Assembly (NCBI GenBank): GCA_026395515.1
Contig: JAPLYN010000006.1
Span: 12,844 to 76,843 of the forward strand
Reading direction: 5' to 3'
DNA: 64,000 bases
From: Candidatus Peregrinibacteria bacterium
Lineage (GTDB): Bacteria > Patescibacteriota > Gracilibacteria > UBA1369 > LOWO2-01-FULL-3
The notes under the pieces are model-generated. The model did not search any database and was not told the DNA's origin. It saw only the letters and a program-made list of their open reading frames with translations. The stretch's first letter is position 1; every line of letters begins with the position of its first letter. Shown piece after piece: positions 39,811 through 59,175 of the stretch. A program made the translations under genes and the position numbers.

Positions 39811-42132
39811 ATGTTCGTCTCTCTCGACTTAGAAACCACAGGTTTTGACCCAAATATTGATAAGATTATTGAGTTTGGTGCAGTAAAATTTGATTTAACA
39901 GGAGAAAAAGAAACTCTGAAATTTTTCGTAAACCCAGGAGTTACCCTACCAAAAATCATCACTCATATTACAAACATCAAGGATTCTGACCTAAAAGACG
40001 CTCCCCCATTCGAAGACAAAAGAGCTGAAGTACAAGCCTTTATTGGCAACCTGCCAATCATTGGTCACAACATAAAATTCGATCTCGCATTTTTGGAAGC
40101 GAACAAAATTGAAATTAAAAACCCAAGCTACGATACTCAAGAACTTAGCGGAATTCTTTTACCAAACATGCCTTCTTACAGTTTGGAAATTCTCAGCGAA
40201 AAGTTAAATCTTACGCATTGCGAAAAGCATCGTGCTCTCGATGATTCCATCGCAGCTATGGAACTTTTTCTAAAATTAATTAAAGAATTTGAAAACCTTG
40301 AACCAGAACTTTTAGAGCAAATGAAAGCTCTCACTCAAAAGTCTAATTGGCCGCTAAAGAATCTTATTTCCAGCATTTCCAGCAAACCAAATCCCGAAGC
40401 TAAAGTTACAAAAAAAGAACCGAAAGAATTCACACCATCAGCAAATTCTCTCAAAATACTCGAGCACACTGAGTCTGCACTTTTCGAATTAATTCCACCA
40501 TACGACAATTTAATTAAAACTCTTTGCGAGAAAGCAGATGGCGATACTTGCATCGTAGTTCCCTATCAAACTTTCAGAAAAATAAATAGCGAAATATCTC
40601 ATGAAGTAAGCAAAGTAGACGTTGCAAAAAGCTATGTATCTTTGAAAAGACTAAAGAGATTTAGCGAAAAAGAATTCTTCGAAAATTACGAAATCAGCGC
40701 ACTTTTAAAATATTTAAACTGGAGCAAACAAACAAAAACCGGACTACTCAGCGAAGTCGCACTCTTCCACGATGAAAGAGCTACCATTCTTAAAGTAAAT
40801 ATCGACGAAAACATTACCAACCCTGAAGAAGAAATGTTCTTCAAAAAAGCGCTTGAAAAAGGCCAAAACAAAGCATCTCTCTACACCAATCAAGCACTTA
40901 TAGAAAACCCGCCGGAAAATAAAAGATTAATTCTCATCGACTTTGATAATTTTTTAAATTCACTACATTTTCACGCTTCAACTTATATAAAGCTTGAACC
41001 AGCAATTGATATTCTAAAAACTTTGGAAGAATATTTCCCAAGCGACCTCACTGTCACCACCTTGATCACCAAGACTACTATCCTCTTTGGTCTCCTTGGC
41101 ATTATTTTTGAAAGACACAACGATCAGAGTATTTACGGAGCAAAAAGCACAATTAATACAGATATTTTCCAAACAAAAGAATGGATAGATGCAGTGAATA
41201 GCTTAAACAACGTCATCGAAATTTCCCAAGAATTAGTAAATGTAAAAAATGAAGAAACAGCCGGCTCCCTCAAACAATGGAAAACATTTTTAAAGAATTT
41301 ATACAGCATTCTTTCTAAGCCAGATTTAGCAAACAACATGGTTTGGTTAGAAAAAGATCCACAATCAAATATAGTAATACGTAAAGCTCCTTTTTCTCTT
41401 AAAGAAGACCTGAAAAACATATTTGGCAAAGCAAAAAATTACCAAATTATTGATGAATGCGTGACTATTAATGACGACGGAAATTTCATCAAATCTCTAG
41501 GAAATTTAGATTCAAAATTACCAATCTACGATCTCAATCCGAAAGACGAAAAGATCGAAATTTATATTACAAAAGATACTGACGGTAGCGATCTAAACAA
41601 GATTCCGCGATTCATTGAAAAATACTACAAAGAAAAATCTCAAAACATTGTGATGCTTTTCAGCGCAAAAAAAGATCTAGAAGTCACCACCCTACAATTA
41701 AGCAAAGAAAATGTTCCAGTTCTTCCCCAATTAGCTGGATCCTTAGGCAAAATCCAAGAACGATACATTAGTGAAAAGAAATCACTTATGCCGCCAGTTC
41801 TTCTAGTTACTTCTCACATTTGGGAAAATTTCGAACCAAATCAAGACATCGACACCCTCATCATTTACAAAATTCCTTTCGATCCACCAAGTGATCCAAA
41901 AATTATTTCTCTTAGTCGAAATTACGCCAATGCCTTTATGGAATTACAAGTTCCCCTAGCCGTAAAATCTACAAAGAAAATTATCAATCGCCTAAAGAGC
42001 AGTCACGCAAATCTCAAAAAAGTAATCATTTTTGACATTCGTTTAACAAACAAAAAATACGCTGACGTATTCTTGGAAAATTTAAACTTAATGGCACCAA
42101 CAAGCGTCGTAAAACTCCACACTCTCCTATAA
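39811..42132 (+). CDS. DnaQ-like 3'-5' exonuclease fused to a DinG-family helicase-like region with degenerate ATPase motifs
   Basis: The ATG at 39811 gives MFVSLDLETTGFDP.. (ExoI), HNIKFDLAFL (ExoII) and HRALDDSIA (ExoIII). The C-terminal ..LIIYKIPFDPPSDP.. is DinG-like. I found no GxGK[ST] Walker A, and DFDN occupies the DEAH position. Confidence 0.7.
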   Translation: MFVSLDLETTGFDPNIDKIIEFGAVKFDLTGEKETLKFFVNPGVTLPKIITHITNIKDSDLKDAPPFEDKRAEVQAFIGNLPIIGHNIKFDLAFLEANKIEIKNPSYDTQELSGILLPNMPSYSLEILSEKLNLTHCEKHRALDDSIAAMELFLKLIKEFENLEPELLEQMKALTQKSNWPLKNLISSISSKPNPEAKVTKKEPKEFTPSANSLKILEHTESALFELIPPYDNLIKTLCEKADGDTCIVVPYQTFRKINSEISHEVSKVDVAKSYVSLKRLKRFSEKEFFENYEISALLKYLNWSKQTKTGLLSEVALFHDERATILKVNIDENITNPEEEMFFKKALEKGQNKASLYTNQALIENPPENKRLILIDFDNFLNSLHFHASTYIKLEPAIDILKTLEEYFPSDLTVTTLITKTTILFGLLGIIFERHNDQSIYGAKSTINTDIFQTKEWIDAVNSLNNVIEISQELVNVKNEETAGSLKQWKTFLKNLYSILSKPDLANNMVWLEKDPQSNIVIRKAPFSLKEDLKNIFGKAKNYQIIDECVTINDDGNFIKSLGNLDSKLPIYDLNPKDEKIEIYITKDTDGSDLNKIPRFIEKYYKEKSQNIVMLFSAKKDLEVTTLQLSKENVPVLPQLAGSLGKIQERYISEKKSLMPPVLLVTSHIWENFEPNQDIDTLIIYKIPFDPPSDPKIISLSRNYANAFMELQVPLAVKSTKKIINRLKSSHANLKKVIIFDIRLTNKKYADVFLENLNLMAPTSVVKLHTLL

Positions 42133-42160
42133 AAAGAGCCCGACTTTTGGCCGAGCTCTT
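42129..42160 (-). terminator. Intrinsic terminator for the minus-strand lipoprotein gene
   Basis: AAGAGC (42134-42139) / GCTCTT (42155-42160) stem with inner CG/CG pairs. The minus strand reads hairpin then CTTTTTAT. Confidence 0.55.
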
Positions 42161-42183
42161 AAGAATTCAAATCAGTCTCAAAA

Positions 42184-42774
42184 CTATTTCAATACTTTAA
42201 ATGTTCCTGTGAAGTTTTTGATTTCTTCATCAGTAGGATAAGCTCCCATAGTTAACATCTCAATTTGGTACAATCTATTTCCAATAAAATATGTCTGAGC
42301 AATCAAATGTGTTCCATCATCACCCTTAGCCTTGTATCTTAAACCAGCGCTATTTGCATCATAATCCATATCTTTTTCTTCTTCAGGAGCCTTAATTCCA
42401 AAAGATCCAAGAGCACCACCTTGTTCATCTTTCAAAACTTTTCTAGCTTCTTCTTTTGTAAACTCACCAGCAGTGATATCTGTATATGCTACTAAAAATG
42501 CATGATTATCATCTGAAGCATAGCTATAAGAAGTCATAGTTGCCTTAAAGCCACCACCATCTCCATCAATTTTATCTGAACTAACTTCAGGTTTTCCAGG
42601 GAAATTAATGCTAAAATTACCTTCTTTAGAAACAAACGCTTCAACTGTAGCAGTCTTAGCATCAGTTTTAGTTGCAGGCGCTGCAGGGTTTGCGGCTGGA
42701 GTAGAAGATCCACAAGCTGTTAAAACTAACAACGCGAGCGGCACCAACGCCCAGAATTTTTTCGACATTTTCAT
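42184..42774 (-). CDS. Lipoprotein, unknown function
   Basis: The ATG at 42774 gives MKMSKKFWALVPLALLVLTACGSS (signal peptide and lipobox LTAC). Confidence 0.75.
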   Translation of the reverse strand: MKMSKKFWALVPLALLVLTACGSSTPAANPAAPATKTDAKTATVEAFVSKEGNFSINFPGKPEVSSDKIDGDGGGFKATMTSYSYASDDNHAFLVAYTDITAGEFTKEEARKVLKDEQGGALGSFGIKAPEEEKDMDYDANSAGLRYKAKGDDGTHLIAQTYFIGNRLYQIEMLTMGAYPTDEEIKNFTGTFKVLK

Positions 42775-42841
42775 GAAATAGGGATTAGGAAATATCAGGA
42801 ACATTTTAAGCCTTTGACGAAAATAATCAAATCTGAAAAAT

Positions 42842-43579
42842 TTAGCCTACTAAATTCTTAATAAAATACCCCACTAAATAAGCAATAGTTGCCGCCATTC
42901 CTCCTATCAAGGCAGTTTCAATTCCACACACAAACCAATTTCTCATCGAGAATTTTGATTTAATCGTGCCAACAAAAAATAATCCAAGCAAAGTTGTGAC
43001 AGCTGTAATATAAAACATTTCTTTATCAGAAAAACTCACAAAAGCTTTAAACGTATAACCAATCAAAGGAATAAAACCAACAGTTATAAAAGAAAAGAAA
43101 GTTATTAAAGCTCCCCTCATAGGATTCACATTTTCATTTGTCATATTAAACTCATTTCTCATCATCAAATCTACCCAACCCTCTGGATTAGAAGTAATTA
43201 CTTCCACCGCTCTTTCCAAATCTTTTCCCTTAAATCCATAGGTTTTCATAATATCCCTCACCTCTCCTATTTCGTGATCGGTTTTTTCCGTCAAATGTCT
43301 AAATTCAATTTGGCGAATTTTTTCGTACTGCTCTAGGTTCGCCTTGTCACTCAAATATTTACCGATAGACATAGAAAAACCATCTCCAAATAGATTAGCA
43401 AAACCTAAAATCAAAATAATTGGCACAGCAAGCGAAGCTCCTTCTACACCTGCCACCACAGCAAAAGTAGTTACCGCTCCATCAATTCCGCCGTACACGA
43501 AATCAGCAATCCAATTGTAATCATTGGAAGTGGAATGCTCCTCTGTGTCTAAAGAATCATCATGCTTACTCATGAACAC
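42842..43579 (-). CDS. VIT1/CCC1-family iron/manganese transporter
   Basis: ..DFVYGGIDGAVTTFAVVAGVEGA.., a central cytosolic helical segment and C-terminal TM helices. Confidence 0.8.
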   Translation of the reverse strand: MFMSKHDDSLDTEEHSTSNDYNWIADFVYGGIDGAVTTFAVVAGVEGASLAVPIILILGFANLFGDGFSMSIGKYLSDKANLEQYEKIRQIEFRHLTEKTDHEIGEVRDIMKTYGFKGKDLERAVEVITSNPEGWVDLMMRNEFNMTNENVNPMRGALITFFSFITVGFIPLIGYTFKAFVSFSDKEMFYITAVTTLLGLFFVGTIKSKFSMRNWFVCGIETALIGGMAATIAYLVGYFIKNLVG

Positions 43580-43608
43580 AATTATCTAGTATTTAAAAAA
43601 TAAAGCAA

Positions 43609-43637
43609 TTGACACAAAAAAAATTTAAGAATACATT
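43609..43637 (+). promoter_or_regulatory. Sigma70-like promoter of the argGH leader
   Basis: TTGACA (43609-43614), a 17-nt spacer, then TACATT (43632-43637). Confidence 0.55.
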
Positions 43638-43657
43638 CACATCGTAATAAAAATTAC

Positions 43658-43723
43658 ATGATCAAATTAACATCTACAACAAGTGTAGTTCGCCGCAGCC
43701 GCTTACGTCAGAAGCTGCGTTGA
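43658..43723 (+). CDS. Candidate Arg-rich leader peptide (21 aa)
   Basis: Hand translation gives MIKLTSTTSVVRRSRLRQKLR*, with 5 Arg (CGC x3, CGT x2) in the last 10 codons. It lies between the promoter and a terminator, upstream of argG. Confidence 0.55.
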   Translation: MIKLTSTTSVVRRSRLRQKLR

Positions 43724-43751
43724 TTTGATGAAAAATAATCATTCAAACTAC

Positions 43752-43780
43752 AAGGCTTCACAAAAATGAAGTCTTTTTTA
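43752..43780 (+). terminator. Intrinsic terminator (attenuator) upstream of argG
   Basis: AAGGCTTCA-CAAAAA-TGAAGTCTT (9-bp stem with one G-T pair), with the T-run continuing to 43779. It sits 32 nt before the argG ATG. Confidence 0.65.
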
Positions 43781-43811
43781 TTTAAACAATATAAACTAAC
43801 AATTTCTCACA

Positions 43812-45074
43812 ATGCAAAACACTACAAAATATCAAGCCGTCGCTTCTCACGAAGCAAAAAAAGGAGAGTTTAAAAAAGCCGTACTTCTCTATTCAGGAGG
43901 ACTAGATACATCTGTAATGCTCAAATGGATTCAAGATGAATATCAGGCGGAAATTATCGCCCTCACAATAGACATTGGACAAAACGAAGACTTCGGTCCA
44001 ATCAAAGAAAAAGCTCTAAAACTAGGAGCAGTAGCAGCACATGTAATTGATGCCAAAGAAGAATTTGCTAATAATTATTTATCAAAAGCTATCAAGGCAA
44101 ACGCTGATTACCAAGGTGGTTATCACCTATTTTGCCCACTTGGGAGAGCAATCATCTCAAAAGTAGGAGTTGATATTGCTCACCAAGAAAACGCTCAAGT
44201 AGTAGCCCACGGATGCACTGGAAAAGGCAATGACCAAGTAAGGTTCGAAGGATATATCACTACACTCGATCCTCAATTAAAAACTATCGCACCTGTTAGG
44301 GAATGGGGCATGGGAAGAGAAGAAGAATTAGAATACGCTGCGAAACACGGCATTCCAGTCACTCAAACTGCTGCAAAAATCTATTCCTACGATGAAAATC
44401 TTTGGGGTGACAGTGCCGAAGGTGGAGAGATTGAAAGCATGAGCAAAATTCCGCCATTAGATAATATTTTGATCAACTGCAAAACTCCGAAAAATGCTCC
44501 AGACCAATCAGAAATTCTAGAAATAGAATTTGAAGAAGGTCTACCAACCGCTGTAAATGGAGAAAAAATGGTTCTTTGGAAGCTAATTAAAATGCTCGCT
44601 CAAATCGGAGCAAAACACGCCGTTGGTATTACTCACTTGGTTGAGGACAGAGTTGTTGGTCTAAAAGTTAGAGGAATTTTCGAAGAACCTGCTGCTGAAA
44701 TTCTCATCCAAGCTCACAAAAATCTTGAAAAACTTGTTTGCACTAGAGATGAAAATGAATTCAAAACAGCCATCGATCAGAAGTGGGCATATCTTTGCTA
44801 CGGCGCAAAATGGTTCCACCCATTGATGAATCACTTGAATGCTTACATCGATAGCGTGAATAAAAAAGTATGTGGAACTGTGACCGTAGAGCTTTACAAA
44901 GGCAAGGTTTCCGTGGTAGCAGTAAAGTCGAAATATTCGCTATTCAATGAGAATCTAGCGACTTTCATGAAGAACAGTTCTTTCAATCAGAATTCATCAG
45001 CTGGATTCATTGAGCTTTGGAACTTACCACAAAAAACTGCATACAATCTTACTAAAGATATTTACAATAAATAG
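43812..45074 (+). CDS. argG: Argininosuccinate synthase
   Basis: ..AVLLYSGGLDTSV.. ATP-PPase motif, 420 aa. Confidence 0.94.
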   Translation: MQNTTKYQAVASHEAKKGEFKKAVLLYSGGLDTSVMLKWIQDEYQAEIIALTIDIGQNEDFGPIKEKALKLGAVAAHVIDAKEEFANNYLSKAIKANADYQGGYHLFCPLGRAIISKVGVDIAHQENAQVVAHGCTGKGNDQVRFEGYITTLDPQLKTIAPVREWGMGREEELEYAAKHGIPVTQTAAKIYSYDENLWGDSAEGGEIESMSKIPPLDNILINCKTPKNAPDQSEILEIEFEEGLPTAVNGEKMVLWKLIKMLAQIGAKHAVGITHLVEDRVVGLKVRGIFEEPAAEILIQAHKNLEKLVCTRDENEFKTAIDQKWAYLCYGAKWFHPLMNHLNAYIDSVNKKVCGTVTVELYKGKVSVVAVKSKYSLFNENLATFMKNSSFNQNSSAGFIELWNLPQKTAYNLTKDIYNK

Positions 45075-45080
45075 TAGCAA

Positions 45081-46370
45081 ATGGGTAAACTTTGGAAAAA
45101 ATCAGGCACCACTCTGCATCCCTTAGTTGAAAAATACACCGTCGGCACGGACTATATTCTCGATGCCAAATTAATGCCCTATGACATTCAGGCTACAAAA
45201 GCTCATGCCAAAGGACTTCAACAGATCGGAATTTTCAAAGCAGCAGAAATTCGCCGCATATTTTCCAGCCTAAATAGACTCGAAAGAGATTTCAAAAAGG
45301 GCCGTGTAAAAATCACCGTTCAAGATGAAGATTGCCACACGGTAATTGAAAATTATCTTACCAAGAAAATTAAAAAGCTTGGACTCAAGATTCACACTGG
45401 CAGAAGCCGAAATGATCAGGTTCTCACTGCCCTTCGTCTCTACATGAAAGATCATCTCAAAATGATACGTTCAAAGACGAAGAAACTCGCACGTGAGTTT
45501 CTCGATTTTGCTCAGAAATATCAGAACATGCCACTTCCAGGCTACAGTCATACTCAACAAGCCATGCTTTCAAGTGTAGGACATTACGCCTGCAGCATTT
45601 TGGAAAGCTTATTGGACGACATAGACTTCCTCGACTACACAATGCAGCACATTAATAAAAACCCGCTAGGAAGCGCTGCTGGTTTCGGTGTTTCTCTCAT
45701 GCTCGATCGCGAACTCACAGCTAAAGAGATGAGATTCCGTCATGTTCAAATAAATTCTCTCTACTGTCAGAATAGCCGTGGAAAATTTGAAAGCATCTAT
45801 TTGGAAAGTTTATCCCAAATAATGATGACCTTAAGTCGTTTTGCGACCGATCTATTACTTTTCACTTCTCAGGAATTTAATTTCTTTGAAGTAAAAAATA
45901 ATCTCGTCACCGGTTCCAGCATCATGCCGCAGAAAAGAAATCTCGATGCGATGGAATTATTGCGCGGATTTAACTCCGTAGTTCAAAGCAATCAGGCACA
46001 AATTAAAGATCTCGTTAAAGGGCTTATTTCAGGCTACAACCGCGATCTTCAATTGATTAAAAAACCATTATTTGAAAGCACAGACATTGTAATGGATAGC
46101 TTGGACGTTGTGGATTTATATCTCAAAGGAATCACTCCAAAAGAAGAATCCATTATGCAGAAAATTAATAAAAATATTTTCACCGCCGACCTTGCCATCA
46201 ATCTAGCAAAGAATAAAAAAATGCCTTTCAGGACTGCTTACCAGAAAGCCATGAAGCTCATTAAAAAGGAAAAAATCGATGTCAAAGAAAACCTAAAAAC
46301 CAAGATCAGTCTGGGAGCTCCAGGCAATCTCGATATTCAGCATTACAAGAATCGTCTCGCAAAATTATAA
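45081..46370 (+). CDS. argH: Argininosuccinate lyase
   Basis: ..HTGRSRNDQV.. and ..GSSIMPQKRN.. fumarate-lyase signature. Confidence 0.93.
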   Translation: MGKLWKKSGTTLHPLVEKYTVGTDYILDAKLMPYDIQATKAHAKGLQQIGIFKAAEIRRIFSSLNRLERDFKKGRVKITVQDEDCHTVIENYLTKKIKKLGLKIHTGRSRNDQVLTALRLYMKDHLKMIRSKTKKLAREFLDFAQKYQNMPLPGYSHTQQAMLSSVGHYACSILESLLDDIDFLDYTMQHINKNPLGSAAGFGVSLMLDRELTAKEMRFRHVQINSLYCQNSRGKFESIYLESLSQIMMTLSRFATDLLLFTSQEFNFFEVKNNLVTGSSIMPQKRNLDAMELLRGFNSVVQSNQAQIKDLVKGLISGYNRDLQLIKKPLFESTDIVMDSLDVVDLYLKGITPKEESIMQKINKNIFTADLAINLAKNKKMPFRTAYQKAMKLIKKEKIDVKENLKTKISLGAPGNLDIQHYKNRLAKL

Positions 46371-46373
46371 GCA

Positions 46374-47744
46374 CTATTTTCCCATCACTAGATCAGTGAT
46401 TCCGGAAAAATCGGCAAGCAATTTAACATTCAAAGTAATAATAATTACGGCCACGACCCACGCCAAAATTTTAATCCAAAGCTTATTAGCGAATTGGCCC
46501 ATTTTTCTCTTATCACTGGTAAAAATAATCAACGGCACAATTGCAAAAGGCAACTGCAAGCTAAGAATAACTTGGCTTAAAATAAGTAATTTAGCCGTCC
46601 CACTTTCACCATAAATAACAGTCACTAATACTGCAGGTATAATAGCAATCAACCTCGTAATTAAACGACGCAACCAAGGAGGCAAACGCAAATTCAAGAA
46701 CCCTTCCATCACAATTTGACCTGCAAGCGTACCAGTAAGCGTAGAATTCTGCCCTGAAGCTAAAAGAGCTACCGCAAAAAGCGTACTTGCAATCCCCACC
46801 CCTAAGGTAGGAGTCAACAATTGATAAGCCTGCTGAATTTCCGCTACCTCATGCTGGCCACTCGTAAAGAATGCTGCAGCAGAAACAATTAAAATTGCCG
46901 CATTAATAAATAAGGCAAACATCAAAGCAACAGTAGAATCAATTGTAGCGAATTTAACAGCTTCCCTTTTACCTTCAGTATCCAATTCGTACTTACGAGT
47001 CTGAACGATAGAAGAGTGTAAATAAAGATTATGTGGCATTACTGTAGCACCCAAAATTCCAATTGCTATAAAAAGCATTTCTGGATTTTTAATAATATCA
47101 AAAGATGGAACGAATCCCGCAAGCACAGGACCAATAGCCGGATTTGAAAAAATAATTTCAGCAAAGAAACACGCACCAACAGTTAACACCAAAGCAACCA
47201 CAAGCGCCTCTATATATCTAAAGCCTTTATTTTGTAAAAACAAAACCAACAACACATCAAGAGATGTGATACACACACCCCAAACCAAAGGAATACCAAA
47301 AAGTAAATTCAAAGCTATAGCTGAACCAATAACCTCCGCCAAATCACACGCTGCAATTGCCAACTCACACAAAACCCACAAACCAAAAGCCACAGGCTTC
47401 GAATAATGATCACGACAAGCCTGAGCCAAATCCCTACCAGTCACAATACCCAATTTTGCAGACAACGACTGCAGCAAAATTGCCATAAGATTAGAAATGA
47501 GAATTACACTAAGCAAAGTGTAACCAAAAGCTGATCCTCCGGCTAAGTCTGTCGCCCAATTTCCAGGATCCATATACCCTACCGCAACCAAATAACCAGG
47601 ACCGGCAAAAGCAAACATTTTACGCCAAAATCCTACTCCTTTCGGTATATGAATAGTTCGATTTACTTCTGATAAACTTGGGTTTCCGCTTTGCAATCTC
47701 CACACCGGTTCATCAGCTGATTGAGATCTAAAAAAGTTCTTCAT
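46374..47744 (-). CDS. mntH: NRAMP-family divalent metal (Mn2+/Fe2+) transporter
   Basis: ..[24 protein letters not shown].., 456 aa polytopic. Confidence 0.93.
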
Positions 47745-47841: not shown

Positions 47842-48222
47842 ATGGAACAGGAAGACTATTTAGAGACGATATACAAGCTAACCCTAGAGCAAGGATTAGT
47901 TCGTATTTCTGATATTGCCAAGATTTTAAAACTCAGCAAACCATCAGTTACTCAGATGATGCAGCGCCTTGAAAAAGATGAATGCGTAATCTATAAACCA
48001 TACTTACCTCTCAAGCTAACGGTAAAAGGCAAAAAGATTGGGAAAAAAGTTGCTGAGAGACACGAAGTCCTCGCCGAATTATTAACAATTCTTGATATTC
48101 CGGAGAACATTCAGGAAAAAGATATTCACGGAATCGAGCACAGCCTAAGCCAAATAACCCTAGATCGCCTCCGTCAAACAGCCAAATTCCTCAAAGAGAA
48201 AAAATTCAAACCTAAGATTTGA
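47842..48222 (+). CDS. mntR: DtxR-family metal-dependent transcriptional regulator
   Basis: MEQEDYLETIYKL....G.VRISDIAKILKLSKPSVTQMMQRLEKDE.., 126 aa. Confidence 0.88.
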   Translation: MEQEDYLETIYKLTLEQGLVRISDIAKILKLSKPSVTQMMQRLEKDECVIYKPYLPLKLTVKGKKIGKKVAERHEVLAELLTILDIPENIQEKDIHGIEHSLSQITLDRLRQTAKFLKEKKFKPKI

Positions 48223-48254: not shown

Positions 48255-48308
48255 ATGAACGCAGCAAAAATTATTATCACGACTACTACAACCACTACAA
48301 TTATGTAG
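48255..48308 (+). CDS. thrL: Thr/Ile-rich leader peptide (17 aa)
   Basis: Hand translation gives MNAAKIIITTTTTTTIM*, with 7 consecutive Thr flanked by Ile. Confidence 0.8.
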   Translation: MNAAKIIITTTTTTTIM

Positions 48309-48335
48309 ATGGAGTCTTGGTAATACACTCATTAC

Positions 48336-48365
48336 ACCGACTCCAAAGTAGTCGGTTATTTTTTT
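48336..48365 (+). terminator. thr attenuator terminator
   Basis: ACCGACT-CCAAAGT-AGTCGGT then TATTTTTTT. The upstream GGAGTC (48311-48316) can pair with GACTCC (48339-48344) as an antiterminator. Confidence 0.8.
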
Positions 48366-48375
48366 ATTCAAAATT

Positions 48376-50181
48376 ATGGAAAATTCTCAAAAAATAGAGA
48401 TATGGACAGATACAGATGGACTAATGACAGCCAATCCTAGAAAAGTAAAAAAAGCCTTTCCTATCAAGGAAATAAGTTACATTGAAGCAATGGAAATGTG
48501 TCATTTCGGAGTAAAAATAATTCACCCAACAGTAATCCAAGAAGCCCAAAGAAAAAACATTCCAATAGTAATTAAAAACAGGCTAAATCCTGATTTCCCT
48601 GGAACAGTTATTAGCAAAAAAACTAATCACAATTTCATCATCCAGGGAATTTCCTCTATTTCAGACATAGCGCTTCTACGTTTACAAGGTAGTGGAATGG
48701 TAGGAGTACCGGGAGTTTCAAAAAGACTTTTTGGCGCACTTTCCAATGAAAAAATAAATATCATTTTAATCAGTCAGGCATCTTCCGAACACTCAATCTG
48801 CTTCGCCGTAGAACCAAATTCAGCCGAACAAGCAAAAAGCGCCATTGAATCAGAATTTTCAGAAGAAATAAAAAACAATCAGATAGATCCAGTCTTTATC
48901 GAAAAAAATCTTTCTATCATCGCCATCGTAGGCGAAAATATGCGCCACACACCTGGTATCTCCGCCAAACTATTTTCTGCTCTCGGAAAAAACGGCATCA
49001 ATATTTCCGCTATTGCTCAAGGATCCTCCGAGCTAAACATTTCCACAGTAATCTCAAAATCAGATGAAAATAAAGCTCTCAATGCCATTCATGATGCCTT
49101 CTTCCTCTCCGGCACAAAAACTTTAAATTTATTTTTCTTCGGCTGCGGACAAATTGGCAAAACAATACTCAAACAAATTTCAGAACAAAGTGAATTTCTT
49201 CAAAATGAAAAGCTTTTAGAAATGAAAATTACAGGTCTAGCGAATAGCAAAAAGATGATCTTATCAGAACAAGGAATTGACCTAAGCAATTGGCAAAATT
49301 CTCTAGAAAATGGTGATCCAAGCAATGCCGAATCCTTCACCGCAAAAATGATTAAACTCAATCTGCCAAATAGTGTTTTTATTGACTGCACAAGCAATGA
49401 AGAAATCACAAAGTTTTACGAAAAAATTCTCAAAGAAAGTATTTCTATTGTCACACCAAACAAAAAGGCTAATTCCCGCGACCTTAAAACTTATAAAAAA
49501 TTAAAAGAAGCAGCCAAAAAATCCAATATCAAATTTCTCTACGAAACAAACGTGGGAGCTGGATTACCAATCATCAATACACTACAAGATCTCCTCTACA
49601 GTGGAGATAAAATAATTAAAATCGAAGCAGTTCTATCAGGAACCCTCAGCTACATTTTCAATTCCTTCACCGGAGAAAAACCATTCAGTGAAATCGTCCT
49701 AGAAGCTCAAAAAAAAGGCTACACAGAACCAGATCCGCGCGATGACTTAAACGGTTTAGATGTCGCAAGAAAATTATTAATTCTCAGTCGCGAAATTGGA
49801 CTACCCCTAGAAATGGAAGATATTGAAGTCGAAAATTTAGTACCGGAAGATTGCAGACAAACATCAAACTTAGAAGATTTTTTTGCAAAACTTTCTACAC
49901 ATAATTATGACTACGCAGAAAAACTTTCCAAAGCAAAATCAGAAGAAAAACGTCTCTGCTACATCTCGAAAATAGAAAACAATAAAGCCAGCGTAAAACT
50001 TGAAACCATAAACAAAAATCATCCATTTAACAGCCTGTCGGGAAGCGACAACATAGTTTCATTCACGACCACACGCTACCTCGAAAGACCACTAGTAATT
50101 AAAGGCCCTGGAGCCGGAGCAGAAGTTACGGCCGCAGGAGTATTTGCAGATGTAATTAGAATAGCAAATTACCTCAACTAA
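48376..50181 (+). CDS. thrA: Homoserine dehydrogenase with ACT domains and only the C-terminal remnant of the aspartokinase domain (N-terminally truncated ThrA-like)
   Basis: It starts at ..EIWTDTDGLMTANPRKV..ISYIEAMEM.HFG.KIIHP.., which corresponds to around residue 225 of bifunctional AK-HSDH. ACT-like repeats follow, then GCGQIGKT NAD-binding and the HSDH catalytic domain. Confidence 0.8.
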   Translation: MENSQKIEIWTDTDGLMTANPRKVKKAFPIKEISYIEAMEMCHFGVKIIHPTVIQEAQRKNIPIVIKNRLNPDFPGTVISKKTNHNFIIQGISSISDIALLRLQGSGMVGVPGVSKRLFGALSNEKINIILISQASSEHSICFAVEPNSAEQAKSAIESEFSEEIKNNQIDPVFIEKNLSIIAIVGENMRHTPGISAKLFSALGKNGINISAIAQGSSELNISTVISKSDENKALNAIHDAFFLSGTKTLNLFFFGCGQIGKTILKQISEQSEFLQNEKLLEMKITGLANSKKMILSEQGIDLSNWQNSLENGDPSNAESFTAKMIKLNLPNSVFIDCTSNEEITKFYEKILKESISIVTPNKKANSRDLKTYKKLKEAAKKSNIKFLYETNVGAGLPIINTLQDLLYSGDKIIKIEAVLSGTLSYIFNSFTGEKPFSEIVLEAQKKGYTEPDPRDDLNGLDVARKLLILSREIGLPLEMEDIEVENLVPEDCRQTSNLEDFFAKLSTHNYDYAEKLSKAKSEEKRLCYISKIENNKASVKLETINKNHPFNSLSGSDNIVSFTTTRYLERPLVIKGPGAGAEVTAAGVFADVIRIANYLN

Positions 50182-50182
50182 C

Positions 50183-50857
50183 ATGAGAATCACAAAAAAT
50201 TCATTCGAAAACAAGCTAGCCAACAACGAACTTGTAATAAGTATAATTGGAATGTCCAACATAGGGAAAACCCATTGGTCAAAAAAATTAAAAGACTCAG
50301 ATTTTGAACACAAATGCTGTGACGATTTAATAGAAAAAATTCTCGAACCAGAGCTACAAGCTCTCGGATATAAAGGCTTGGCAGATTTAGCAAAATGGCT
50401 TGGCTATCCATATGAAGACAAATTCATGGTTAACCAACAACAATATATTCAACACGAATGTAACGTCATGGAAAACATTCTTAAAGAATTAGATAAAAGA
50501 AAAACTAAAAATATTACCATCGATACCACAGGAAGCGTAATCTATACCGGCGACTACATCTGCAAAAGACTAAAAGAAAAAAGCCTAATCATATTCATTG
50601 AATCAACTCCTCAAATGCAGACCGAAATGTTTCAGCGATTTCTGAGCAATCCTAAGCCAATAGTTTGGGCTCATAGTTTTACAAAAAAAGAGAAGGAGGA
50701 CAATATGGCAGCGCTCAAACGTTGCTACCCAGAGCTTTTAAAATATCGTACCAGCCAATACCGCAGACATGCAGACATCATTATCCCTTACAAAAGAATT
50801 GAACGAGATTTATCCTCAGAACAATTTTTAGAATTAATAAAAAGCTACCTACGATAA
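50183..50857 (+). CDS. P-loop kinase-like protein occupying the thrB position
   Basis: Walker A GMSNIGKT near the N-terminus, 224 aa. It is tightly packed between the thrA-like gene (1-nt gap) and thrC (1-nt gap). Confidence 0.6.
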   Translation: MRITKNSFENKLANNELVISIIGMSNIGKTHWSKKLKDSDFEHKCCDDLIEKILEPELQALGYKGLADLAKWLGYPYEDKFMVNQQQYIQHECNVMENILKELDKRKTKNITIDTTGSVIYTGDYICKRLKEKSLIIFIESTPQMQTEMFQRFLSNPKPIVWAHSFTKKEKEDNMAALKRCYPELLKYRTSQYRRHADIIIPYKRIERDLSSEQFLELIKSYLR

Positions 50858-50858
50858 T

Positions 50859-52178
50859 ATGAAATTATTCAGTACAAATAGAAAAGCAGATCCTAAATTT
50901 TTACCGCCACTAGCCACATTCGAAAAAGCTGTAATGCAAGGCCTTGCCGAAGATGGAGGACTTTTCATGCCTACGGAAATACCAACACTTCCAAAAGATT
51001 TCTTTGAAAAAATTTCAATCTTAAGCCTTCCAGAAATTTCTTTTGAAGTAGCGAAAACTTTACTACAAGAAGACATTCCAGAAAAAGATCTCAGAAAAAT
51101 AATAGATGAAAGCATTAATTTTGATGCACCTCTTAAGCAAGTCGTGGAAAATATATTTTCTTTAGAACTATTCCACGGCCCTACTCTCGCCTTCAAAGAT
51201 TTTGGCGCCAGATTTATGGCACGCATCATGTCGTATTTCATCAATAAATCTGACAAAAAAATCACCATAATAGTTGCGACATCTGGAGATACCGGAAGCG
51301 CTGTAGCAAGCGGCGTATACAATGTGCCGGGAATAAGAGTTTTTCTTCTTTATCCAAGTGGAAAAGTAAGCAAAATACAAGAACAACAACTCACCACCAT
51401 GGGCGGAAATATTCACGCTCTAGAAATTGATGGAACTTTCGATGATTGCCAAAGGTTAGTAAAAACTGCTTTCGTTGATAAAGAATTGAAAACTATTTTT
51501 GCCGAAAATAACGATTCTCTCGGTTCAGCCAATTCAATAAACATTGCCAGACTAATCCCCCAATCTTTTTATTATTTCTACGCTTATGCTCAATTGAAAA
51601 ACAAAGACTATGCAGTTTTCTCTATACCAAGCGGAAATCTTGGGAACTTAACTGCAGGATTAATTGCGAAAAAAATGGGACTCCCAATAAAAAAATTCAT
51701 CGCAGCAAATAATTCCAACAATTCATTCACGGAATATTTACACACAGGAAATTTCACAGCCAAAGCCTCAGTCACTACAATTTCCAATGCTATGGACGTA
51801 GGCAATCCCAGTAACTTCGTCCGCATCCTCGAACTCTACGAAAACAATTTAGAAAAAATTCGACAAGACATATCTTCTGCTGACTTTTCAGATGAAAAAA
51901 CTGCCGCAGCCATTAAAGAAGTTTATGAAAAATATCACTACACTATGGATCCCCACGGAGCTGTCGCCTATCTCGGATTAAAAACTTTCTCCCCTTGCGG
52001 AATATTTTTTGAGACAGCACATCCAGCAAAATTTCTAGATGTAGTTGAACCTATCATCGGAACAAAAATTCAAATCCCAGAACGCCTAGCTTCCTGTCTC
52101 ACTAAAACAAAAGTCACCACAAAACTATCCAAAGAATTCCAAGATTTTAAAAATTTTTTAGCCAAAAACGCTAAATAA
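50859..52178 (+). CDS. thrC: Threonine synthase
   Basis: ..GGLFMP..IP... and FHGPTLAFKDFG (PLP lysine), 439 aa. Confidence 0.93.
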   Translation: MKLFSTNRKADPKFLPPLATFEKAVMQGLAEDGGLFMPTEIPTLPKDFFEKISILSLPEISFEVAKTLLQEDIPEKDLRKIIDESINFDAPLKQVVENIFSLELFHGPTLAFKDFGARFMARIMSYFINKSDKKITIIVATSGDTGSAVASGVYNVPGIRVFLLYPSGKVSKIQEQQLTTMGGNIHALEIDGTFDDCQRLVKTAFVDKELKTIFAENNDSLGSANSINIARLIPQSFYYFYAYAQLKNKDYAVFSIPSGNLGNLTAGLIAKKMGLPIKKFIAANNSNNSFTEYLHTGNFTAKASVTTISNAMDVGNPSNFVRILELYENNLEKIRQDISSADFSDEKTAAAIKEVYEKYHYTMDPHGAVAYLGLKTFSPCGIFFETAHPAKFLDVVEPIIGTKIQIPERLASCLTKTKVTTKLSKEFQDFKNFLAKNAK

Positions 52179-52220: not shown

Positions 52221-52820
52221 ATGGCACACACACTTCCAGCCCTTCCATACGCTTACGATGCCTTGGAACCACATATAGACGCTCGTACAATGGAAATCCA
52301 CCACACTAAGCACCACCAAACATACGTTGATAAATTAAATGCTGCACTTTCAAAATATCCAGAGCTCGCTGACAAACCATTAGATGAACTTCTAAAAGAT
52401 CTAAATGTGGTTCCAGAAGATATTCGCACAGCAGTAAGAAATCACGGAGGAGGACACTACAATCACTCCATGTTTTGGAAAATAATGGCTCCAAATGCAG
52501 GAGGCCAACCATCTGGAAAACTTGCAGAAATGATTACAACAAAATTTGGTAGCTTTGATAAATTAAAAGAAGAATTCAATACAGCAGCTGCAAACAGATT
52601 TGGTAGTGGCTGGGCTTGGCTTTCAATCGATAAAACAGGCGCTCTAGTAGTAACATCTTCAGCAAATCAAGATTGTCCCCTATCAGATGGCCTAAAACCA
52701 ATTCTCTGTCTCGACGTTTGGGAACATGCCTACTATCTCAACTACCAAAATCGTCGTCCGGATTACATGAATGCTTGGTGGAATGTAGTAAGTTGGAGCG
52801 AAGTAGAAAAAGGAATATAA
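52221..52820 (+). CDS. sodA: Fe/Mn superoxide dismutase
   Basis: [31 protein letters not shown]...[16 protein letters not shown]. Confidence 0.95.
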
Positions 52821-59098: not shown

Positions 59099-59175
59099 GC
59101 GCTCGTAGCTCAGATGGATAGAGCATCAGCTTGCGGAGCTGGGGGTCACAGGTTCGACTCCTGTCGGGCGCACCA
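59099..59175 (+). tRNA. tRNA-Arg, anticodon GCG, CCA encoded
   Basis: Hand-folded cloverleaf: acceptor GCGCTCG/CGGGCGC, D arm GCTC/GAGC, anticodon stem TCAGC/GCTGG with loop TT-GCG-GA, variable loop GGGTC, T arm ACAGG-TTCGACT-CCTGT, discriminator A, then CCA. Confidence 0.88.

Follow-up and report, generated by a model that had tools for sequence, protein, structure and literature searches.

The arginine biosynthesis genes argG and argH of a Candidatus Peregrinibacteria bacterium are preceded by a short leader, which is very probably a leader-peptide (ribosome-mediated) attenuator of transcription, with charged tRNA-Arg as its signal and argGH as its target. The leader is located on a 64,000-nucleotide stretch of contig JAPLYN010000006.1; this whole stretch of DNA is called the window here, and coordinates refer to it unless another locus is named. 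The case for attenuation rests wholly on sequence, comparative and folding evidence. From such evidence, the leader appears to combine the features that characterize attenuators of this class: a mini-open reading frame (mini-ORF), tandem cognate codons, a terminator, mutually exclusive helices, and a geometry that fits the ribosome. Transcript start, translation of the mini-ORF, coupling between ribosome and RNA polymerase, use of the terminator, and the response to arginine in vivo are the parts of the scheme that we infer.

Organization of the leader and predicted switching

A preliminary description had pointed out the promoter, an Arg-rich mini-ORF, two competing pairings and a terminator upstream of argGH, and each of these was found again at the same place. 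The parts of the leader and the two genes behind it are the following.

43609..43637, + strand, promoter: -35 hexamer TTGACA (43609-43614), 17-nt spacer, -10 hexamer TACATT (43632-43637)
43658..43723, + strand, leader mini-ORF of 21 codons, MIKLTSTTSVVRRSRLRQKLR, with a UGA stop; ATG, frame and TGA kept in 6/6 Peribacteria-type sequences
43660..43671, + strand, 5′ strand of P1, a start-to-stop helix; 43661-71 pairs with 43719-29 in the minimum free energy (MFE) structure of the window RNA
43691..43696, + strand, tandem Arg codons CGC CGC (codons 12-13), invariant as CGCCGC in the close-relative alignment A1; other Arg codons at 43700-02, 43706-08 and 43718-20
43694..43699, + strand, segment 1, CGCAGC, overlapping Arg codon 13 and pairing with segment 2
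43711..43719, + strand, segment 2, GAAGCUGCG, whose GCUGCG pairs with segment 1 and whose GAAGCU pairs with segment 3; GAAGCT invariant in A1
43724..43747, + strand, post-stop hairpin H, UUUGAUGA / UCAUUCAAA, nested in the antiterminator, with compensatory changes at 4 pairs
43752..43783, + strand, intrinsic terminator: segment 3 AAGGCUUCA (43752-60), loop, segment 4 UGAAGUCUU (43767-75), then UUUUAUUU
43812..45074, + strand, argG (argininosuccinate synthase), the first regulated gene; Pfam match and NCBIfam NF001770, 502 bits against a cut-off of 334
45081..46370, + strand, argH (argininosuccinate lyase), second gene of the operon; Pfam match and TIGR00838, 309 bits against a cut-off of 279.5

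The promoter matches a sigma-70-like consensus at 10 of 12 positions and is the top site within the 5 kb from 42000 to 47000. From its position, the transcript would start near 43644, leaving a 5′ untranslated region (UTR) of about 13 nt. Both genes exceed their NCBIfam equivalog cut-offs, which bears out their earlier assignment as argGH.

The codons of the mini-ORF are ATG ATC AAA TTA ACA TCT ACA ACA AGT GTA GTT CGC CGC AGC CGC TTA CGT CAG AAG CTG CGT TGA, among which Arg codons are numbers 12, 13, 15, 17, and 21. Arg thus takes 5 of the 21 codons, against 3.6% in the genes of the window, where in-frame CGY-CGY tandems occur at 0.00085 per codon. The leader uses CGC and CGT exclusively, while AGA is the commonest Arg codon in the window genes (284, compared with 166 CGT and 105 CGC). 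Segment 1 is the exact reverse complement of GCTGCG (43714-19), and GAAGCT (43711-16) can instead pair with GGCTTC (43754-59) over 6 bp with one G-U. The stop codon (43721-23) lies 2 nt past segment 2. The terminator stem (43752-60/43767-75) has 9 bp and is followed by TTTTATTT, with a folding energy of -8.7 kcal/mol. The leader RNA as a whole folds with a z-score of -3.7, and none of 200 shuffles was as stable.

In the proposed mechanism, transcription would begin at the TTGACA/TACATT promoter and a ribosome would translate the 21-codon leader. Under a shortage of Arg-tRNA, the ribosome would stall with CGC-CGC (43691-96) in its decoding sites, covering segment 1 and the 5′ strand of P1 and leaving segment 2 (GAAGCU, 43711-16) and hairpin H free. 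The free segment 2 would then pair with the 5′ arm of the terminator (GGCUUC, 43754-59) before the 3′ arm is made, and RNA polymerase would read through into argG-argH. With Arg-tRNA in good supply, the ribosome would reach UGA (43721-23) and cover segment 2 and half of H; the 3:4 terminator hairpin would then have no competitor, and transcription would stop at the U-run. RNA that is not translated would adopt P1, the 1:2 hairpin and the terminator, also an off state. The tandem pair alone can act as the sensor, because a ribosome halted at Arg 17 or Arg 21 would hide segment 2, which favours termination. With the ribosome at the second CGC, the edge of its footprint falls at about 43705, and segment 2 starts at 43711.

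Folding with ribosome masks

The alternative structures of the preliminary description were modelled by folding each leader with the ribosome footprint forced single-stranded, which yields the antiterminator at the Arg stall and the terminator at the stop codon. The free window RNA forms P1 (43661-71 with 43719-29), the 1:2 hairpin and the terminator, at -30.4 kcal/mol; the 5′ strand of hairpin H is here paired with the ORF start as part of P1, and segment 3 is 10% paired before segment 4 is present. With the ribosome at the second CGC, again before segment 4, GAAGCU (43711-16) and GGCUUC (43754-59) close over 43724-47 at -13.2 kcal/mol, which brings segment 3 to 68% paired. Once the ribosome stands at UGA, the terminator alone can fold (0.0 kcal/mol; segment 3 4% paired). 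The Arg-stall state of the related loci L002, L003, L081, and L083 shows the same pattern, and there the antiterminator is the MFE structure for the full-length RNA, too. All 28 leaders folded in this way agree in direction, with segment 3 paired to a greater extent when the ribosome stalls at Arg than when it stands at the stop (Wilcoxon p = 3.7e-9). The energy of the window antiterminator was reached by 3 of 200 spacer shuffles.

Segment 3 pairing before segment 4 is transcribed was used as the measure because the equilibrium read-out is uninformative for the window, where the probability of the terminator is 0.89-0.93 in all states. According to the models, the antiterminator is the GAAGCU:GGCUUC helix closing over the nested post-stop hairpin (43724-43747), more than a 6-bp helix.

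Conservation in close relatives

Genome and metagenome scans gave a close-relative alignment, A1, consisting of the window, the near-identical L001, and L002, L003, L081/L136 and L083. Metagenome-assembled genomes of Candidatus Peribacteria / Peregrinibacteria encode proteins with 99%, 96%, and 92% identity to the ArgG of the window, which places the uncultured host in the Candidate Phyla Radiation (CPR). Across the relatives, the ATG and the opening codons do not vary, nor do CGCCGC, GAAGCT, the TGA within GCGTTGAT, and GGCTTC, and the two promoter hexamers are unchanged in position in L001, L002, L003, and L081. Among the mini-ORFs there is a single indel, 3 nt long and in frame. Beyond the RR, the residues are variable: RRSRLRQKLR, RRSKYRQKLR, RRLNFRQKLR, RRFALKKKLR, and RRRVALTKLR. 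As read from this alignment, constraint in the close relatives is limited to the tandem Arg and the final Arg encoded by segment 2, whereas Arg 15 and Arg 17 vary.

The structures are kept as well. In the terminator, 96% of cells are paired across the relatives, with G-U and compensatory changes. On the same alignment, the antiterminator conformation has 86.7% of cells paired, against 30-54% in slid controls; it shows 4 compensatory pairs, with a covariation score that none of 500 shuffles reaches, and all six sequences keep the 2:3 pairs. Segment 1 differs in sequence in L003, L081, and L083 with its pairing to segment 2 retained. RNAalifold independently recovers P1 (GAUCAA with UUGAUY, 6/6), the 1:2 pairing (second CGC with GCG), and the terminator. 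The P1 register kept across the relatives is GAUCAA 43660-65 with UUGAUU 43720-25 (RNAalifold columns 16-21 with 76-81, intact in 6/6).

The 1:2 / 2:3 / 3:4 logic ascribed to this leader in the preliminary description is borne out by mask folding, conservation, covariation, and the other lineages described below, with four amendments: the antiterminator is wider than the 6-bp helix, conservation of the Arg codons is limited to the tandem and the last one, an extra helix joins codons 2-3 with the stop region, and the leader, in a CPR host, is one of a widespread class.

Leaders of the same design in unrelated lineages

The survey was extended to 160 argG loci (7-kb), in which an ATG mini-ORF with RR followed by a terminator was looked for. 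About 17 further lineages of the CPR type have such a leader, unrelated in sequence to that of the window and alike in layout, with an antiterminator and a terminator before argG or argF-argG. These CPR-lineage leaders carry 2-4 tandem CGY Arg codons. Loci with the same design in a different sequence are L020, L018, L023, L026, L029, L033, L096, L101, L104/105/115, L110, L017, L085/86, and L126/L084. Examples of their leader peptides are MNITTTTSQIRRTPRI (L020), MKITFFVASFSRRSN (L018), MKNYLLNNRRRMFLSVRVG (L033), MDYTKLYLHARRRRYRCAG (L023), MIIKTKQNRRRKHALRKRGCLR (L026), MIKQTLNNQNRRRCLSGVRWLV (L104), and MKNTNATILRRRTLTP (L126). In several of these unrelated leaders, the 1:2, 2:3, and 3:4 segments are visible by eye. 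Where argF stands ahead of argG, the leader is found before argF, as in L084; the contig of L082 stops within argF.

A further group is formed by about 20 leaders of Balneolaceae, with the pattern M...(L/I)RRRRP(L/M/W)G(V/A) and then the stop, located before argF-argG-argH and containing four tandem CGY codons. Their terminators are strong (-15 to -19 kcal/mol). They are found in L006, L008, L009, L011-L015, L019, L022, L024, L025, L027, L031, L045, and L060, and also in L091-L093, L098, L099, L109, L114, and L118. For example, L013 has the ORF at 1705-1767 and the terminator at 1806-1834 of that locus, and the cultured Rhodohalobacter sulfatireducens is among the carriers. With five close relatives, about 17 CPR lineages and about 20 Balneolaceae leaders, the conservation of an Arg-rich mini-ORF upstream of argG, for which the preliminary description had called, is found. 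The sole feature common to all leader lineages is the tandem of CGY Arg codons. ArgG identity among the related loci is 62-99%, so they are not assembly duplicates of one sequence.

A strict detector accepted ORFs of 8-35 codons that begin with ATG and contain CGY-CGY in frame, provided that a terminator begins between -15 and +90 nt relative to the ORF end; it was run on both strands of all loci and the window (1.76 Mb). It gave 56 matches on the strand of the arg genes and 0 on the opposite strand (878 kb). Among mini-ORFs with a terminator, tandem Arg is found in 72 of 167 on the arg strand, against 9 of 163 on the opposite strand.

Other observations were made at the surveyed loci. A second type of Arg leader (..PAPRRPL.), MTYTVSVPAPRRPLK / MNTSTFVPAPRRPLN with a terminator, is located further upstream in the same operons, at 986-1100 of L016 and 2398-2500 of L023. 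In L016, this second leader lies ahead of a gene for a proB-like amino-acid kinase, which scores below cut-off; downstream come argG, argH, and the gene of a LysE-family exporter. In the Patescibacteria/Woesebacteria contigs L039 and L051, argG is preceded at a distance of 260 nt by a pair of terminator-like hairpins, one after the other and with long T-runs, but by no Arg-containing mini-ORF; the hairpins may belong to a different leader design or be unrelated.

Alternative explanations

Several findings weigh against attenuation and have to be set beside the evidence above. The 2:3 helix is invariant in sequence and hence without covariation; all of the covariation lies in the nested hairpin, and the close relatives number five distinct ones. 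The segment-3 pairing probability of the window was reached by 27 of 200 shuffles and is not significant alone, and in the Balneolaceae leaders the antiterminators are not clearly resolved by the segment-3 pairing measure. Folding of the full-length window RNA under the Arg-stall mask still favours the terminator (P = 0.89, -15.2 vs -13.2 kcal/mol). Since the terminator is thus more stable at equilibrium even when the ribosome is stalled, read-through must rest on the order of co-transcriptional folding, and such reliance is a trait of classical attenuators. To our knowledge, neither transcription-translation coupling nor intrinsic termination has been shown in CPR bacteria. Finally, the 5′ UTR of the mini-ORF has no Shine-Dalgarno (SD) sequence, though this is normal for the genome, because SD-like motifs stand ahead of 5 of 48 window genes, the background rate at random positions.

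Among other readings, one is that CGC-CGC and the other G+C-rich codons merely build RNA stems in an A+T-rich leader; the element would then be a structure that a protein recognizes, or else a terminator acting constitutively or in part, and regulation, if any, would go through ArgR at the promoter or an RNA-binding protein. This reading is in line with the fact that CGCAGC is itself segment 1, that there is overlap between pairing segments and Arg codons 15, 17, and 21, some of which vary in the relatives, and that the promoter region holds three weak ARG-box-like matches (12/16). However, the ARG-box scan, made against the consensus WNTGAATWWWWATTCANW (usually paired), gave 12/16 as its best score, and these matches are not conserved in L002, L003, and L081 and are of a quality reached at 239 positions of the A+T-rich window. 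About 40 distinct leaders have different stems with the tandem CGY-CGY always in frame with an ATG...stop mini-ORF, and the association is restricted to arg genes and their strand. Because the Arg codons are always in frame and lie outside the stems in several leaders (L033, L029, L104), they are not a by-product of the needs of G+C-rich stems, and this explanation is improbable.

Still less probable is an arrest peptide, that is, a mini-ORF product sensing free arginine or a related metabolite in the ribosome tunnel, comparable to the fungal arginine attenuator peptide, TnaC, and SpeFL. Within the Peribacteria group, the N-terminal part MIKL..TTSVVRR is fairly conserved, as such a peptide would lead one to expect, but across lineages the peptides share RR(R)(R) alone, not a conserved arrest sequence, and they match no Pfam or NCBIfam family. 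Moreover, arrest by high arginine would have the wrong sign, since stalling on the Arg codons keeps the terminator from forming and would switch biosynthesis on when arginine is abundant.

A chance ORF beside an ordinary hairpin, without regulatory role, would suit the modest terminator (9 bp, 3 G-C pairs, -8.7 kcal/mol) and the number of terminator-like sites in the 5-kb stretch, which is no higher than in shuffles, but it is the least probable of the three, as the whole architecture is kept in relatives and reinvented in many lineages, the leader fold has z = -3.7, the opposite strand gave 0 matches in 878 kb, and no co-directional upstream gene needs a terminator. Attenuation by the ribosome on the leader peptide thus remains the reading that we prefer.

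Genomic context and genetic code

The upstream neighbour is a VIT1 family gene (42842-43579), divergent from argGH. The leader terminator therefore sits in a divergent promoter region, where the leader transcript is the only one to be terminated. The surroundings of argGH have a metal-homeostasis character: in addition to the VIT1-family gene, there are a Nramp (MntH-like) transporter gene (46374-47744, minus strand, convergent with argH), a DtxR/MntR-family metalloregulator gene (47842-48222, divergent from the Nramp gene), and an Fe/Mn superoxide dismutase gene (52221-52820). No leader was found before carA (35470), where the apparent gap is filled by a 144-aa ORF.

As the mini-ORF ends in UGA, the genetic code matters. 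Reading of UGA as Gly, the code of sister Gracilibacteria, was considered and rejected for the window: the standard code gives 49 non-overlapping TGA-free ORFs, which together span 83% of it, and TGA, a rare stop here, ends 4 of the 49, so UGA is a stop. Every Peribacteria-type arg leader stops at TGA, inside the conserved GCGUUGAU that forms two alternative helices. In the event of UGA read-through, a TAA follows 15 nt downstream, still before the terminator.

There is a second candidate leader in the window. A Thr/Ile-rich leader at 48256-48365, with the ORF MNAAKIIITTTTTTTIM (48256-48309, followed by a stop), has competing helices GGAGUC/GACUCC and CCGACU/AGUCGG and a terminator hairpin (48338-48356) with a T-run, and it folds with z = -4.3. 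It precedes a thr operon (48376-52178) consisting of a thrA-like gene, a 224-aa ORF with a weak homoserine-kinase match, and thrC. Its logic is like that of E. coli thrL, and it has no match to Rfam Thr_leader at the gathering score. The presence of this Thr/Ile leader and terminator in the same window suggests that the organism uses leader attenuation. The ThrA-like protein (48376-50181) scores 864 bits on the model of bifunctional aspartokinase/homoserine dehydrogenase I, starting from profile position 220/819: it is without the N-terminal kinase core and retains the C-terminal end of the kinase, the ACT domains, and the dehydrogenase. The missing core is not supplied by any coding sequence upstream.

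The window also encodes a tRNA-Arg with the anticodon GCG (59099-59175), which reads exactly CGC and CGU, the same codons that the Arg leaders use. As a rule, bacteria decode CGC/CGU with an ACG (inosine) tRNA, and a GCG anticodon is unusual; it may be connected with the sensor's preference for these codons.

A wider picture can be drawn tentatively, and we give it slightly less than even chances. Arginine leader attenuation would be widespread in Peregrinibacteria/Gracilibacteria-type CPR and in Balneolaceae, unrecognized before and possibly replacing ArgR there. Together with the Thr leader, it would show that reduced, SD-poor genomes rely on coupled sensing of tRNA charging, maybe through the unusual tRNA-Arg with the GCG anticodon.

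Comparison with known systems

Textbooks list leader-peptide attenuation for trp, his, leu, thr, ilv, and phe, and the ArgR repressor for arginine. In the textbook account, arg genes are controlled by ArgR/AhrC, which binds ARG boxes in the promoter DNA and responds to free arginine; this control has the same regulon and physiological logic as the proposed argGH leader. An arginine-codon attenuator would fill a gap in the list. CPR/Patescibacteria cannot be grown alone and their regulation is almost unknown, and the argGH leader would be among the first concrete gene-regulatory mechanisms for them.

The preliminary description had stated no awareness of an established Arg-leader attenuator for argGH, and none was met in the openly readable literature, Rfam, Pfam, or NCBIfam. 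For arginine biosynthesis genes in general, the openly readable full-text literature gave no Arg leader attenuator; subscription journals lie outside this scope, and a prior prediction is possible. No paper in the openly readable full-text literature combines leader peptide, attenuation, and Candidate Phyla Radiation. Among Rfam families, no leader matches near 43000-44400 at E <= 10 above its threshold, the best being Phe_leader with 25 bits against 55, over the terminator only. At the gathering score, tRNAs alone are found in the whole window and in 12 other leader-bearing loci. Six leader peptides have no match in NCBIfam or Pfam.

The argGH leader is like trpL, hisL, leuL, thrL, pheL, and ilvL/ivbL in having a mini-ORF close to the promoter, in which cognate codons form a run, and competing 1:2 / 2:3 / 3:4 helices. 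As in the classical enterobacterial leaders, an intrinsic terminator stands just before the first biosynthetic gene, and the stop codon lies where a ribosome that terminates on it would cover segment 2. Unlike those leaders, it would sense arginine, which none of the Rfam families Trp_leader, His_leader, Leu_leader, Thr_leader, and Phe_leader does, and it has no sequence or covariance-model similarity to them. Further differences are the nested hairpin in its antiterminator, the extra helix joining the ORF start to the stop region, the short 5′ UTR without SD, and the CPR host.

T-box riboswitches also sense tRNA charging and control a terminator/antiterminator pair, but they bind uncharged tRNA directly and have a structured leader of at least 200 nt with no ORF. 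A T-box was looked for and rejected, with no match at E <= 10 in 43000-44400 and none at the gathering score in the whole window.

Arginine codons as a sensor are known from Salmonella, the closest precedent in function, where low-arginine pausing at two consecutive Arg codons of orf34, before speF, refolds the mRNA (PMC6386406). The two systems share the pair of consecutive Arg codons in an upstream ORF. In Salmonella, the output is RNase G sensitivity, Rho-dependent termination, and exposure of the ribosome-binding site of the ornithine decarboxylase gene (PMC6386406), whereas the argGH leader has an intrinsic terminator before arginine biosynthesis genes and is unrelated in sequence. Another close parallel is the recently recognized tandem-Cys upstream ORF uORFC-8-2, an attenuator upstream of cysS in Rhodobacterales described by Brewer et al. 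(PMC8632094): there, too, a tandem of two cognate codons, near positions 14-15, comes before a terminator, and the element was found by comparative genomics alone, and it differs in the amino acid (Cys), the target (a tRNA synthetase), and the alphaproteobacterial host.

As for the taxonomic range, leader peptides were known to Naville and Gautheret in Proteobacteria and Actinobacteria only, to which they added a His case of their own in Firmicutes (PMC2965389). Furthermore, among Bacteroidota, Trp, Ile, His, and aromatic leaders are listed for Flavobacterium psychrophilum, and none for Arg (PMC9723704, supplement); these represent the same mode of control outside Proteobacteria in an SD-poor organism, and the Balneolaceae RRRR leaders belong to a neighbouring lineage.

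The many independent sequence solutions are a natural data set for attenuator evolution and could seed a new RNA family model, and since the element is small and self-contained, a direct test in a heterologous reporter is possible. Judged from the sequences, the argGH leader represents a known mechanism, ribosome-mediated transcription attenuation, with a new amino-acid specificity, arginine, and new hosts, CPR and Balneolaceae.

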